Positions 11,494-14,832 of a stretch of DNA of 64,000 nucleotides are shown in pieces. Made by a program: the position numbers and the translations under genes. Under the pieces are notes generated by a model. That model saw nothing but the letters and a program-made list of their open reading frames with translations. It did not search any database and was not told the DNA's origin. The DNA is taken from the NCBI RefSeq assembly GCF_988242995.1, contig NZ_OZ547043.1; one strand, 5' to 3'. Numbering within the stretch: position 1 is the first letter of the stretch; every line of letters begins with the position of its first letter.

Positions 11494-14400
11494 TTAATTT
11501 AGATATTTCACATACATTTCACGCCCCTTATCCCAAATGATTTTTGTAATTTCACTTTTATAAAACTTGCGTTTGAAATATATAAAGGTATTCCTCTTCA
11601 AATTGGCTTCTTTTGGAACTGACTCCGGGACAGGACTAGGTTGCGTTTTGCTCTGTTCTTTATTTGGAATGATCTTTTTTACTGGTTTCGTAGCGGTAGT
11701 TGACTTCTTAAGTGGTGGATAAATTACAGGGAAATGTTTATCCTCATATAGAGGGTCGTCAGCGACATACTGATTTAATAACAATTGGTCTGTAGTATTA
11801 CTGCAAAGATAAGACAATGGGTAAACGAATGCATCCCGTGTTTGAGAGTTAATATACTCCCATTTGCCTTTAAATAAAGAAACGTAATCTTTACAGAACT
11901 CCTTCATATATACTTGTGATTTTAAAGTTAAAAGAGATGTTGCTGTAATTTCAGACGGAAAAATAATTGGTTTTACTGCTGATTCTGATTTCTCATAACC
12001 GTAACAGGTAGATGTTAAAGCATCTGATAATAGTAATTCATAAAATGATGGGAGAAATACTCGAAGCCCACGTCTAAAAGGATTAAATGTATCAACTAAG
12101 TAACTATTTATGTCATTTACACATTTATGTTTCCTTTCACGGAACATAAATAAAGGTATATCAATCCCCATAAGATCAGCTAATATATCACGACTGGTTC
12201 CTCTTGCGCCCAAGTCGAATACAGCGAATTTTTTATTTTCGGTAATGCTAGTAATATATTCAATCAAATACTTATTTTTTTTATTTACTTCATTACTACA
12301 TGAAGCAAAATCATAGTATTTATGTATAAACTGTGAAATTTCATGTTTATTTTTACTACTGTCAGCAGACAAGTTCAGCTTCAACTCTTGCACTAACTTT
12401 TTAGCTATTCTATCATTTGAAACGTCTATATCAAATACGTAATCTAAAAACTTTTTAACATTTAACTTTGAATTATAAAGAGACAGCAGCGTGCCTTTTA
12501 ATGCTTTATTGTTATATGCAGACAAGGTAGCTGTTCTGGATATATAAAAGTATACACTTTTAGGTAACTGATGATTATACAGTGTATCATTTATATAATT
12601 GTAAACATCAAAAACGACTCTGGAATCTCTTGAAGAAAAAAGTATTTTCTCATAATTGCTATTTTTTGTATTTTGTATAAGCCAGTGAGTGAGACTTAAA
12701 ACTAATGGTCCAAAAATATAATAACCAAGAAGCGCACTTGAATTATTGATAGAAGTTTTATGATCAAATGGAACGAATGGATTATCAAATAGCTTATTAG
12801 CGATCATTCCAAGATAAAATGAAAAGTTTTCTTTATAGACAAAACCTAATACATCAGGCTTAAACAGATTAGTTTTTCTAAATTCATCTATTGCCTTAGG
12901 ATAATGCTCTGCCAGTAATCCATTATCGGTAGCTCTCTGAACATCAGATTTTAAATTATCCCCGATGAATAGAGTTTTAGAAGCATCAAAACCTTCTTTC
13001 AATAATATAAGCTTGAATAAGGAACCATTATATTTTACTTTATTGTACTCACATGAGATATAAACTGGTATCTGATTAATTTCATATCCATTACTTATTA
13101 AAATATCTTTTAATAAGTCTTCCGGTAAGTACATATCAGAAGCAACAAATAAATTTTTATGATGGATTTTAGCCAGTGTAAAATATTCTAACATTGTTTC
13201 TCTTGGAGTGAGTAACTGGCGTTCCATTTCACATTCTATGTTTTTTATTTTACTTATTGTATCATCTGTAAATCCAGTACTTTCTTGTAATTTATTATAT
13301 ATCTCATCTAGCGTTACTTCTATTTTACCTTGTCTAGCCAAGCTTTCTGCATGAATTCTTGTTGTTGAAAAATTAAAACTCCTTAATTTTGTTACTTTAT
13401 ATATATCTTCTTCTATTAGATTAAATAGATCTGTTGGCTTGACCAACGGACGGCATAACAAAGTATCAAAAATATCAAAACCAATATTTCTTATATTATC
13501 ATTAATTAAATAACCAAGTAATTTTTCAAATTTAGTTTGCTCATAGTTTATATGTACATTATTCTGTAAAAGAAGCTGCTGAGAAAGTCTCGCTTTATAT
13601 CCACGCAATGTTCCCAATTGCGGAAGATACTTAATATATTCGTTATTTTCAATGTTTTTTATTATTTGTTTTAAATATAAGAAACTATTTTTTTCATTAC
13701 GTAAAAAACGAGTGTTAACTTTATGTGTTAATACGTACTTAATTATTTTATTACTTATATCAATATAATCAGATGAAAGAGTTGCATTGGTTGATAAGTA
13801 ATTATACACATGTTCAACAGTACCAATTGAAAATTTGCTATTAGGGCTATTTCCATAGCTAAAAATTGGCTTCCCTAAAAGCATGGCTGGCATAAATATA
13901 TTTGAGTAAATATTTATAACAGCATCAACATGAGGAAGTACTCTTATAGAAATATCATTATCAATAGATGACACTTTATCGAGATTAATTATCCTTTCAT
14001 TATTATCAATATAATGATCGTTTTCTGTTCTATCTAACGAGTGTTTTGAATAAACTATTGCGCAATCATTTGGAATTTGTTCTAAAAGAAACTGTAAAAA
14101 AGCTGCATTAGATGAAAATCCAGAATATTTTTTAAATCGTAATGAAGGAAAATTTCCCGGATAGAATATCAAATATTTAAATTTACTGTCAGGATCGAGA
14201 GTTTTTCTATTTATTTGTGTTTCAAATATAATGTTATCTTGATAATATTTTTTTAAATTTTGTATATCGATAACATCCTCTGGTACTATTTCAACTTTTT
14301 TTATAGCTTCAAAAAAGGCATCATCATATTTTTTGTCTTTTGTTGAAACATTAAATAACACATCGGGGTTGTTATTTTCCAATCGCCAGAAACCAGTATG

Positions 14401-14832
14401 AGAGCCCTCAAGCAAGACACTATCTTTAAATACCTCTGCAAAAATTTCAGAACAAAATTCCCAGTAAATAACAATATCAGGATTTAAATTACCCAGCTTA
14501 TTCCTAAAATAATCAACCAGATGTTCTTTTAGCTTTTTTGAAATGTCATTGCTAATAACCATCTCAACTGTCGAATCATAATAATCCAATATATTTCTTA
14601 TTTCTGAGTCTGGTATATTAATCACTGTCACATTATTCTTTATTAAATTCTGTTTTATTTCTCTTTTTTCCAGAACGGAATCCAGGGCTAAATAGGTGAC
14701 TTTTAGATCTTTTTGTTTTTTGGAGTATCGCCCAAGAAAGTCGGCATTAAGATCAAACTTTGCCACAAAACTTCTTTCATCAGCACCTTTATCTAAATCG
14801 ACAAAGACATCCATATAATAAAGAACTTGCAT
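11494..14832 (-). CDS. Region 2 multidomain capsule polymerase candidate: N-terminal KpsC/KpsS-like (beta-Kdo transferase family) domain, central HAD-like phosphatase motif, unassigned C-terminal domain
   Basis: 1112 aa. N-terminal block SKHSLDRT...VINIYSNIFMPAMLLGKPIFSYGNS parallels KpsS KHHPMDRG...VVTINSTAGISALIHNKPLKVMGNALYD in the same window; central IGFDIFDTLLCRP matches the HAD DxDx(T/V) signature. Confidence 0.6.
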   Translation of the reverse strand: MQVLYYMDVFVDLDKGADERSFVAKFDLNADFLGRYSKKQKDLKVTYLALDSVLEKREIKQNLIKNNVTVINIPDSEIRNILDYYDSTVEMVISNDISKKLKEHLVDYFRNKLGNLNPDIVIYWEFCSEIFAEVFKDSVLLEGSHTGFWRLENNNPDVLFNVSTKDKKYDDAFFEAIKKVEIVPEDVIDIQNLKKYYQDNIIFETQINRKTLDPDSKFKYLIFYPGNFPSLRFKKYSGFSSNAAFLQFLLEQIPNDCAIVYSKHSLDRTENDHYIDNNERIINLDKVSSIDNDISIRVLPHVDAVINIYSNIFMPAMLLGKPIFSYGNSPNSKFSIGTVEHVYNYLSTNATLSSDYIDISNKIIKYVLTHKVNTRFLRNEKNSFLYLKQIIKNIENNEYIKYLPQLGTLRGYKARLSQQLLLQNNVHINYEQTKFEKLLGYLINDNIRNIGFDIFDTLLCRPLVKPTDLFNLIEEDIYKVTKLRSFNFSTTRIHAESLARQGKIEVTLDEIYNKLQESTGFTDDTISKIKNIECEMERQLLTPRETMLEYFTLAKIHHKNLFVASDMYLPEDLLKDILISNGYEINQIPVYISCEYNKVKYNGSLFKLILLKEGFDASKTLFIGDNLKSDVQRATDNGLLAEHYPKAIDEFRKTNLFKPDVLGFVYKENFSFYLGMIANKLFDNPFVPFDHKTSINNSSALLGYYIFGPLVLSLTHWLIQNTKNSNYEKILFSSRDSRVVFDVYNYINDTLYNHQLPKSVYFYISRTATLSAYNNKALKGTLLSLYNSKLNVKKFLDYVFDIDVSNDRIAKKLVQELKLNLSADSSKNKHEISQFIHKYYDFASCSNEVNKKNKYLIEYITSITENKKFAVFDLGARGTSRDILADLMGIDIPLFMFRERKHKCVNDINSYLVDTFNPFRRGLRVFLPSFYELLLSDALTSTCYGYEKSESAVKPIIFPSEITATSLLTLKSQVYMKEFCKDYVSLFKGKWEYINSQTRDAFVYPLSYLCSNTTDQLLLNQYVADDPLYEDKHFPVIYPPLKKSTTATKPVKKIIPNKEQSKTQPSPVPESVPKEANLKRNTFIYFKRKFYKSEITKIIWDKGREMYVKYLN

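Follow-up and report, generated by a model that had tools for sequence, protein, structure and literature searches.

The locus raises the question of how one large protein could build a capsule polymer, and in which ring form Kdo would enter that polymer. The window is the whole stretch of 64,000 nucleotides that was analysed. The gene is a real open reading frame on the minus strand (11494-14832, 1112 aa) and belongs to region 2 of a kps capsule locus of group 2. Upstream in the same operon is a gene for a 231-aa orphan cytidylyltransferase of the CTP_transf_3 superfamily (15070..15765, minus strand). Downstream is a gene for a 530-aa protein with a WcbI domain and hexapeptide repeats (9673..11265, minus strand), a putative capsule O-acetyltransferase. 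RefSeq names this protein 'WcbI family ... putative acetyltransferase', and NCBIfam hexapeptide acetyltransferase models match its residues 400-515. A WcbI-type gene also lies downstream of the polymerase in the Avibacterium and Desulfovibrio loci. Region 1 (kpsF, E, D, U, C, S; 1568..9563, plus strand) encodes the export machinery, CMP-Kdo supply and poly-Kdo linker enzymes, as assigned from the open reading frames, the RefSeq annotation of the 042 locus, and NCBIfam matches for KpsS and KdsB. Region 3 (kpsT, kpsM; 15851..17355, minus strand) encodes the ABC exporter (open reading frames, RefSeq annotation, PMC2808357), and its transcription runs into region 2. The GC content of region 2 is low, suggesting that the region was imported. 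PADLOC found no matches on any of the region-2 proteins; therefore, a defence-system reading of the region was dropped.

The polymerase is laid out as three modules and a C-terminal tail, and by homology all three modules are catalytic. The central module (aa 446-655; 12868..13497, minus strand) is a predicted HAD-type phosphoribosyl 5-phosphatase resembling CrpP of Bcs3, the Haemophilus influenzae type b enzyme (PDB 8A0C; PMC10299916). The sequence-only reading had noted a HAD phosphatase motif here, and the alignments bear it out. The nucleophile D453 in FDIFDTL is the aligned equivalent of CrpP D386 (PMC10299916), and the same string is present in the polymerase, Bcs3 and KrkA. The module also contains S565, K600 and G624-D625-N626 with D630. 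As in CrpP, conservation in motif I is limited to the first Asp, and the Lys of motif III and the acidic residues of motif IV are also kept. None of D453, S565, K600 and D625/D630 varies among 23 homologues. Pfam and NCBIfam matches to this module are weak and sub-threshold, and profile searches match it to many HAD structures.

The third module (aa 656-1025; 11758..12867, minus strand) is a predicted PRPP-dependent ribofuranose-5-phosphate transferase (CriT-like, or glycan phosphoribosyltransferase). The C-terminal 400 residues or so had been taken as unassigned and possibly a new transferase domain, and the silence of Pfam and NCBIfam over aa 656-1025 is in keeping with that. This is extremely improbable given that aa 656-1022 align with Bcs3 CriT, 7SHG and the KrkA ribosyltransferase and keep the catalytic residues. 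These residues make up the very phosphosugar transferase that the sequence-only reading had sought as partner of the phosphatase. A single-sequence phmmer search aligns aa 451-1022 with CrpP plus CriT of Bcs3 (E=4.4e-18), and the family profile reaches 9.4e-60 against Bcs3 and 8.8e-46 against the 7SHG ribofuranosyltransferase. The KrkA ribosyltransferase is 30% identical to the C-terminal part of the polymerase (E=5e-42). In CriT, the active site includes an S-R-D loop (D680), an acidic partner (E818), T825 and a proposed base (E874) (PMC10299916). S734-R735-D736, D873, T879 and E932 align with S678-R679-D680, E818, T825 and E874 of Bcs3, and all are invariant in the 23 homologues. By these alignments the polymerase is a member of the class that pairs a PRPP-dependent ribofuranosyltransferase with a phosphoribosyl phosphatase (Bcs3 CriT/CrpP; 7SHG type), and its activity is predicted on that basis. 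Bcs3 has the CrpP and CriT pair in the same order and with the same catalytic residues, but its architecture is CroT-CrpP-CriT-SH3b. The SH3b domain is absent here, and the TagF-like ribitol-phosphate transferase at the N-terminus of Bcs3 is replaced by a Kdo-transferase fold. The remainder (aa 1026-1112 and the stop codon; 11494..11757, minus strand) reads as a Pro/Lys-rich linker and a basic, aromatic-rich tail. No other segment differs as much between alleles (60-77% identity). The C-terminus of KrkA has an analogous electropositive region (PMC12887879), and a function in membrane or partner association is probable for the tail.

The N-terminal module (aa 1-445; 13498..14832, minus strand) is a GT-B module with the retaining beta-Kdo transferase fold of the GT99/GT107/GT140 superfamily. 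Its predicted role is that of a CMP-Kdo-type transferase, and its active site is non-canonical. Its kinship emerged only through the family profile and a fold search, in which the closest folds were all retaining beta-Kdo transferases; it shares the modified GT-B fold of WbbB and KpsC. As a single sequence it had no match in the PDB at E<=10. A scan of the whole protein gave no Pfam or NCBIfam recognition of this module, with PF05159 absent at E<=10, and a precomputed PF05159 match is present only in distant relatives such as P0061. Similarity to KpsC and KpsS profiles, which the sequence-only reading had called for, was detected by hhalign at 96.7-98% (KpsC 6MGD, E=3.9e-5) and is visible at the profile-profile level only. 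KpsC and KpsS from the same window (GT107, PF05159) share with the module an HP-type His and the nucleotide-binding block '...V.T.TS..G..AL..GKPV...G', as the sequence-only reading had noticed. However, the module lacks the PF05159 match and the QxxxD nucleophile motif of GT107, and has Ser for the Pro of HP. The claimed likeness thus holds at the superfamily level, through the profiles and the shared block, and by sequence it goes no further. GT107 enzymes also build the Kdo-Kdo linker and not the serotype-specific repeat.

The nucleotide-binding residues of the module are well conserved. In the K263-H264 motif, H264 is present in 34/34 clade members. The next position, Pro in the HP motif, is occupied by Ser in this allele, and 14/34 members have Pro there. 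S310 and D303 are invariant (63/63), and the S310 block aligns in register with KpsC and KpsS. By homology, H264 is the CMP-binding His and S310 the phosphate-binding Ser. The loop equivalent to QxxxD is G226-N227-F-P-S230-L231, with no acidic residue in aa 226-233. Asn227 lies opposite Gln156 and Leu231 opposite Asp160 of E. coli KpsC-N, a mapping made by profile alignment via GT107 and not by structural superposition. Within the clade the first QxxxD column is N in 22/34 and H in 11/34, and the second is variable. In the N-terminal GT99 beta-Kdo transferase of WbbB from Raoultella terrigena (PDB 5FA0, 8CSB-8CSF), Asp232 of QxxxD is the covalent nucleophile of a double displacement. WbbB shares the fold at about 9-10% sequence identity, but profile mapping places no Asp or Glu at the equivalent position here, and WbbB is an O antigen chain terminator and not part of a polymerase. 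The missing Asp matters, as it is the defining residue of the unusual mechanism, a double displacement, that GT99/107/140 enzymes use. The position of the general base is less clear. KpsC uses Glu66 in R-L-E-D-G. Global hhalign sets R150-L-E152 against R-L-E66 of KpsC, yet E152 is kept in only 26/34 clade members. The motif likeness also fits L-L-E142-G, and E142 is kept in 32/34 (Gln in the other two).

With the nucleophile motif missing, one could suppose that the module is catalytically dead and acts as a scaffold, as a hub for oligomerisation or as a domain that binds the polymer, while KpsC or some other enzyme inserts the Kdo. The GT140 module of KrkA does double as a trimerisation hub. 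This is very unlikely here, as the nucleotide-binding residues are under strong purifying conservation and the module is 55-81% identical across genera. Its tight linkage to the cytidylyltransferase argues for an enzyme that uses a CMP-sugar, and KpsC makes only Kdo-Kdo linkages (PMC12887879).

The same overall architecture was shown experimentally in 2026 for KrkA of E. coli K13 (JBC; PMC12887879). In KrkA of K13, K20 and K23 a GT140 Kdo transferase is joined to a ribosyltransferase-phosphatase (PDB 9YFX-9YFZ), and the enzyme makes a ribose-Kdo capsule containing beta-Kdop from CMP-Kdo and PRPP (PMC12887879). For comparison, its sequence was reconstructed from strain UPEC 26-1 with the primers and peptides of PMC12887879 as guides. 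The best BLASTP match between KrkA and the N-terminal module is an off-register segment at E=0.054, phmmer with the N-terminal part of KrkA found no match at E<=10 among 105 family proteins, and hhalign against the KrkA GT140 module gives a probability of 15%. The GT140 module of KrkA spans aa 1-356, and the family members listed with it are 41-69% identical (PMC12887879). Membership in GT140 was rejected, since there is no detectable sequence similarity and the nucleophile Asp193 of Q189xxxD193 is absent. Where KrkA has Q189xxxD193 and S-R-H-P, the polymerase reads G-N227-F-P-S-L231 and S-K-H264-S. A region-2 cytidylyltransferase is also missing from the KrkA locus, whose acetyltransferase is of the CatB type and not the WcbI type. 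Since the Asp nucleophile of GT99/107/140 is missing, the chemistry of the module probably differs from the double-displacement mechanism of KrkA.

The capsule type can be assigned indirectly, by comparison with E. coli 042. The polymerase is identical to the 042 protein and the kps locus is near-identical to that of 042. The near-identity is confined to this locus and the gsp flank is 95-97% identical, so equating the whole window with 042 was rejected. A 2026 Nat Microbiol catalogue of transporter-dependent E. coli capsules labels this class of open reading frame in silico as 'GT99-like Kdo transferase + RibfT-phosphatase' (PMC13171606), and its K74_8, K109_8, K95_8 and K135_7 entries have this class and the three-gene region 2 found here. 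The region 2 genes match the K74 catalogue locus (WcbI acetyltransferase of 530 aa, polymerase of >1100 aa, cytidylyltransferase of 231 aa). The polymerase is 85.276% identical to P0002 and the published value for K74_8 against K109_8 is 85.278%; the lengths also fit K109_8 (1113 aa) and K135_7 (1114 aa). By sequence the polymerase corresponds to K74_8. Given its identity with the 042 protein and its match to K74_8, the polymerase probably makes the K74 antigen. This assignment goes through 042 and K74_8, as the K74 reference assembly GCA_900636275 did not appear among the entries that an exact-protein look-up listed. The O antigen of 042 is O44, in agreement with the O44:K74:H18 strain used to define K74.

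The K74 antigen is reported as a Ribf-Ribf-Kdo trisaccharide with two differently linked riboses and a furanosidic Kdo. The literature conflicts on its form (beta-furanose or 'alpha-linked'). K74 and K95 are the only two K antigens reported with Kdo furanose, and in E. coli the clade of the N-terminal module covers both. These structures come from 1980s chemistry and were not re-examined in the 2026 catalogue study, in which K74 and K95 are absent from the polysaccharides named as MS-confirmed repeat units (PMC13171606). A second ribosyltransferase that could account for the trisaccharide repeat was sought within the window and the polymerase, and only the single module was found.

The orphan cytidylyltransferase may explain the ring form. 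Pfam PF02348 matches only its N-terminal 70 aa (E=1.5e-6), and on NCBIfam models it scores 46.9 bits for PseF (cut-off 205.7) and about 15 bits for KdsB. For KpsU of the window the KdsB score is 384 bits, and its identity to the cytidylyltransferase is 20% over 61 aa. By these scores the enzyme is neither KdsB nor PseF. A homologue adjoins a family member in 9/9 loci examined, including two with standalone N-module proteins. The cytidylyltransferase is therefore a candidate, and probably the supplier, of the CMP-activated donor of the N-terminal module. The main text of the catalogue has 0 occurrences of the word cytidylyltransferase and does not mention the missing nucleophile (PMC13171606).

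It is possible, though less likely than not, that the module works like KrkA, as a conventional retaining transferase of beta-Kdo-pyranose that draws on the housekeeping CMP-beta-Kdo of KdsB/KpsU and takes its nucleophile from elsewhere in the fold. The cytidylyltransferase would then be a redundant, non-orthologous CMP-Kdo synthetase in a horizontally acquired cassette. The fold neighbours and the low-GC import of region 2 are consistent with this, and key catalytic groups, the general base among them, can shift topologically within the superfamily (PMC12887879). In Avibacterium the gene for the small cytidylyltransferase comes directly after kpsF, and no further CTP_transf_3 gene is seen in the Atlantibacter locus; both fit a CMP-Kdo synthetase belonging to the locus. 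However, the loop lacks an acidic residue, the nucleophile column varies in the clade, and the cytidylyltransferase scores far below KpsU on KdsB. Desulfovibrio has KdsA and a KdsB-KdsC fusion besides the small enzyme, and K13-type KrkA loci do without such a cytidylyltransferase. The structurally known E. coli clade members, K74 and K95, are also reported with Kdo furanose and not the beta-Kdop of KrkA.

A second possibility, of similar likelihood, starts from a separate activated sugar as the product of the cytidylyltransferase, the simplest candidate being CMP-Kdo furanose. The nucleophile-free module would transfer it by single displacement with a retained glutamate base to give Kdo-furanose. 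A pyranoside cannot contract its ring once it is glycosylated, which makes a furanose donor a chemical necessity. The module has lost the Gln and Asp of QxxxD and keeps the CMP-binding His, the Ser and the candidate bases E125, E142 and E152, although the latter two vary within the clade as given above. The adjacency of the cytidylyltransferase extends to the standalone modules. K74, K109, K95 and K135 share a roughly 97% identical cytidylyltransferase, and the two known structures among them are the only Kdo-furanose K antigens. The catalogue authors note that K74 would require a non-retaining Kdo transferase (PMC13171606). Against this, the evidence is correlative and depends on two structures from early chemistry. 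A literature search for CMP-Kdo-furanose or a Kdo mutase found nothing relevant, and the ring-forming step could be carried out by a mutase encoded elsewhere. The fuller proposal is somewhat more doubtful: the module would be a separate GT family, derived from retaining beta-Kdo transferases and lacking the Asp nucleophile, that installs Kdo furanose by direct displacement from an undescribed CMP-Kdo-furanose or similar CMP-ulosonate made by the orphan cytidylyltransferase.

The protein is quite likely the sole polymerase of a group 2 locus of K74 type, one that alternates Kdo and ribose addition. The sequence-only reading had proposed a KpsC/KpsS-like CMP-Kdo-type transferase coupled to a phosphosugar transferase and HAD pair that polymerises a Kdo-pentose repeat, and this core is supported by the Bcs3 and 7SHG alignments and the fold of the N-terminal module. 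KpsS and KpsC would make a poly-Kdo-phosphatidylglycerol primer on which the polymerase acts. The N-terminal module would transfer Kdo, with a donor probably furnished by the co-inherited cytidylyltransferase, in alternation with ribose addition. Each ribose would be added by phosphoribosyl transfer from PRPP (aa 656-1025) followed by removal of the 5-phosphate (aa 446-655), giving a Ribf/Kdo polymer. The WcbI/hexapeptide neighbour would O-acetylate the polymer, and KpsMTED would export it. If the product is the K74 antigen, the one ribosyltransferase module must serve two acceptors because K74 is Ribf-Ribf-Kdo. The mismatch between two ribose linkages and one such module counts against this reading, as do the indirect K74 assignment, the silence of Pfam and NCBIfam on the N-terminal module, the conflicting reports on Kdo in K74, and the profile-based mapping of the nucleophile and general base.

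The idea of a single-polypeptide ribose-Kdo polymerase was already published in 2026 (PMC12887879, PMC13171606). What is new here, from sequence comparison, is an N-terminal module family that is unlike GT140 and lacks the QxxxD Asp, its link to the cytidylyltransferase in all nine loci, and the coincidence with K74 and K95. The three-gene locus is a compact test system for Kdo furanose activation and transfer, because no such route was found in the literature. The results bear on the prediction of capsule structure from genotype, where the structures of K109 and K135 are unknown, and are relevant to glycoengineering of ribose-Kdo antigens. If the separate-family reading is true, it would account for the synthesis of K74 and K95, the Kdo-furanose capsules.

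The 1112-aa polymerase belongs to a kps locus of the classic group 2 capsule type. Its ORF lies on the minus strand at 11494-14832, where the plus-strand frame is riddled with stops. Region 1 consists of kpsF, E, D, U, C and S on the plus strand (1568-9563). Region 2 also encodes a 530-aa WcbI/hexapeptide acetyltransferase (9673-11265) and a 231-aa cytidylyltransferase (15070-15765), both on the minus strand. The genes kpsT and kpsM follow (15851-17355), and the gsp type II secretion genes come next. The G+C content is 27-31% in region 2 and 50-53% in region 1; the low value in region 2 fits the import of a serotype cassette.

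Identity between the kps locus (1600-17300) and its E. coli 042 counterpart is 99.8-100%, and the two encode the same polymerase protein, with one synonymous difference in the gene. Across 17300-25800, identity to 042 falls to 98.4% in the 5' region of kpsM and to 95-97% in the gsp genes beside the locus. No match above 97.1% identity to 17400-27400 was found among complete E. coli genomes, while a distal segment of the window has a 99% match to E. coli. Since the kps locus is close to that of 042 but the gsp flank has diverged, the same K locus occupies another chromosomal background, and a recombination boundary lies at about 17.3-18.3 kb. The intergenic stretch from kpsS to region 2 (9564-9592) differs from the 042 chromosome by an indel of one base, which shifts the offset to NC_017626.1 from 402 to 401. 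Short ORFs 5' of kpsF (335-754) correspond to the IS110-family transposase fragment annotated beside the 042 kps locus, and this fragment is a mobile-DNA scar at the left edge of the locus. The 042 genome paper describes the kps locus as intact and notes that no capsule had been described (PMC2808357).

As a multi-enzyme capsule polymerase, the protein represents a variant on the KrkA/Bcs3 type. The core idea of the sequence-only reading, a multi-enzyme polymerase for a Kdo-containing polymer, is correct, with the modules assigned by homology, but such an enzyme is already published. KrkA of E. coli K13 (1113 aa; 2026 JBC) has the same module order and adds both Kdo and ribose in vitro (PMC12887879). 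Residues 451-1022 of the polymerase align with the solved Haemophilus influenzae type b polymerase Bcs3 (E=4.4e-18), and the family profile matches Bcs3 at 9.4e-60 and the 7SHG ribofuranosyltransferase at 8.8e-46. Module limits and residue roles were taken over from the Bcs3 paper (PMC10299916). A CrpP-like HAD phosphatase occupies aa 446-655, with nucleophile D453 and S565, K600, D625 and D630; of the motif I aspartates it retains just the first, as does Bcs3 CrpP. A CriT-like PRPP-dependent ribofuranose-5-phosphate transferase follows (aa 656-1025), in which S734-R735-D736, D873, T879 and E932 correspond to Bcs3 S678-R679-D680, E818, T825 and E874. The listed residues of both modules are unvarying across 23 homologues. 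The C-terminal 400 aa, earlier called unassigned, is therefore a known phosphoribosyltransferase, and the protein ends in ~87 aa of Pro/Lys-rich linker and basic tail.

The N-module (aa 1-445) had been likened to KpsC and KpsS, and all motifs quoted in the sequence-only reading are present. A single collinear BLASTP alignment covers both KpsS-like blocks (polymerase aa 251-329, KpsS of the window 262-343), with 23% identity and E=0.009; one such pair is weak by itself. Since this match was weak and neither Pfam nor NCBIfam recognises the N-terminal region, homologues were gathered. These comprise 26 full-length relatives (38-85% identity) and, for the N-terminal 445 aa, 74 representatives out of 1.84 billion proteins. 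The family profile matches KpsC (PDB 6MGD) with E=3.9e-5. In hhalign against a GT107 alignment of KpsC-N, KpsC-C and KpsS modules from four species, the family scores a local probability of 96.7% (E=3.7e-10) and a global probability of 98%. Similarity to KpsC/KpsS profiles is thus detected by both routes, and the resemblance is real.

The N-module of KrkA is the founder of GT140, with nucleophile Asp193 of QxxxD, base Glu102 and an S-R-H-P motif (PMC12887879). The KrkA sequence was rebuilt from a K13-type genome, and its numbering agrees with every residue named in the paper. The match to KrkA is confined to the C-terminal two thirds of the polymerase (30% identity), whereas BLASTP, phmmer (105 family proteins) and hhalign detect no similarity between the N-modules. 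In the K13-type locus of E. coli UPEC 26-1 (L002, 8347-8530), krkA is interrupted by an in-frame stop at codon 31. RefSeq starts at a downstream TTG and annotates 1052 aa as a 'HAD family hydrolase', a form which would miss the acceptor-binding residues E17 and N21. UPEC 26-1 may be without a K13-type capsule.

The Kdo-transferase module of the polymerase is non-canonical. In the profile alignment to KpsC QxxxD, Asn227 faces the Gln and Leu231 faces the Asp, and there is no acidic residue in aa 226-233. Across the 34 members of the clade, Asn or His fills the first column; the second column varies. The CMP-binding His264 is retained in all 34, and Ser310 in 63 of 63. Candidate general bases are E125 (30/34), E142 (32/34) and E152 (26/34); the alignment of KpsC Glu66 to these glutamates is ambiguous. 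A distant subfamily (rows P0052-P0090 of the homologue alignment) retains the Gln in the motif LLPLQxSxYFxFD, with a conserved Tyr (16/29) in the residue-231 column, the place of the GT99/107/140 Asp nucleophile. Because Tyr is the nucleophile in retaining sialidases, this Tyr could solve the same chemical problem in another way.

The polymerase locus has a cytidylyltransferase gene in region 2, unlike the K13-type locus. On the PseF model this CTP_transf_3 protein reaches 46.9 bits, below the cut-off of 205.7, and on KdsB models about 15 bits, while KpsU of the window scores 384 bits on KdsB; by these scores the region 2 protein is an orphan. A CTP_transf_3 gene adjoins the family member, or is one gene away, in all nine loci examined, which include Avibacterium, Atlantibacter, Desulfovibrio and two standalone N-module proteins. 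The Desulfovibrio locus also encodes KdsA and a KdsB-KdsC fusion. That the polymerase is accompanied by a dedicated cytidylyltransferase is a tentative proposal.

Two metagenomic loci (L005 10907-12202, L007 11566-12861) encode, beside distant family members of about 1145-1182 aa, a 431-aa protein that joins a cytidylyltransferase to an RraA-like domain (pyruvate aldolase family). The fusion suggests that one protein makes a 3-deoxy-2-ulosonic acid by aldol condensation and then CMP-activates it. Two others (L008, L009) have standalone N-module proteins of 454-487 aa in polysaccharide loci with a cytidylyltransferase, pyruvate-aldolase-type genes (HMGL-like, HpcH/HpaI), a DHQ-synthase-like gene and a TPP enzyme. 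Ulosonic acids beyond Kdo may be among the substrates of the N-module family. In Desulfovibrio sp. An276 (L004), two copies of a block comprising a kpsF-like gene, a small ORF, kpsM and kpsT stand on either side of the capsule cassette (1-2368 and 18085-20901), which may reflect a duplication or two capsule loci side by side.

The K type was assigned from three points: identity to P0002, catalogue lengths and the O44 antigen of 042. The polymerase is 85.276% identical to P0002, a K109-type allele, and the E. coli capsule catalogue gives 85.278% for K74_8 against K109_8 (PMC13171606). P0002 and P0003 (K135-type) fit K109_8 (1113 aa) and K135_7 (1114 aa) after six N-terminal residues are added; therefore, the 1112-aa polymerase corresponds to K74_8. 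The literature gives O44 for 042. The K74 antigen was defined on an O44:K74:H18 strain, and we take the flagellar type of 042 to be H18. The database entries P0002 and P0003 both begin at a Met equivalent to polymerase residue 7. Residues 1-6 (window 14815-14832) are shared with proteins from other genera, and the model gives them as a confident beta-strand, so the polymerase's longer start is probably right and the two entries are probably truncated at the N-terminus. In the catalogue, K74, K109, K95 and K135 form the E. coli clade, and their cytidylyltransferases share about 97% identity (PMC13171606). The clade correlates with Kdo furanose, since the beta-furanose Kdo capsules named in the KrkA paper are K74 and K95 (PMC12887879).

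Homology shows a three-module polymerase that uses a CMP-activated ulosonic acid and PRPP. Kdo and Ribf would very probably be added alternately onto the KpsS/KpsC primer, and the polymer then O-acetylated and exported. For a trisaccharide repeat, either the one ribosyltransferase module would have to act on two acceptors or a further enzyme would be encoded elsewhere; the window has no such second enzyme. The catalogue authors raised the same problem for K16, and stated that an inverting Kdo transferase would be required for K74 (PMC13171606). The absent nucleophile is compatible with direct displacement in the N-module. The ring size of a glycoside is fixed once it is transferred, so a furanosidic Kdo requires a furanose donor; the obvious candidate to supply it is the orphan cytidylyltransferase linked to the polymerase. 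This reading, of a dedicated furanose donor and direct displacement, is based on two old structures and gene linkage, and is less likely than not. A more mundane explanation, with the nucleophile relocated and the cytidylyltransferase a redundant CMP-Kdo synthetase carried along with the cassette, is about as likely. The non-canonical Kdo-transferase module, together with a possibly dedicated cytidylyltransferase, makes the origin of the Kdo furanose testable.
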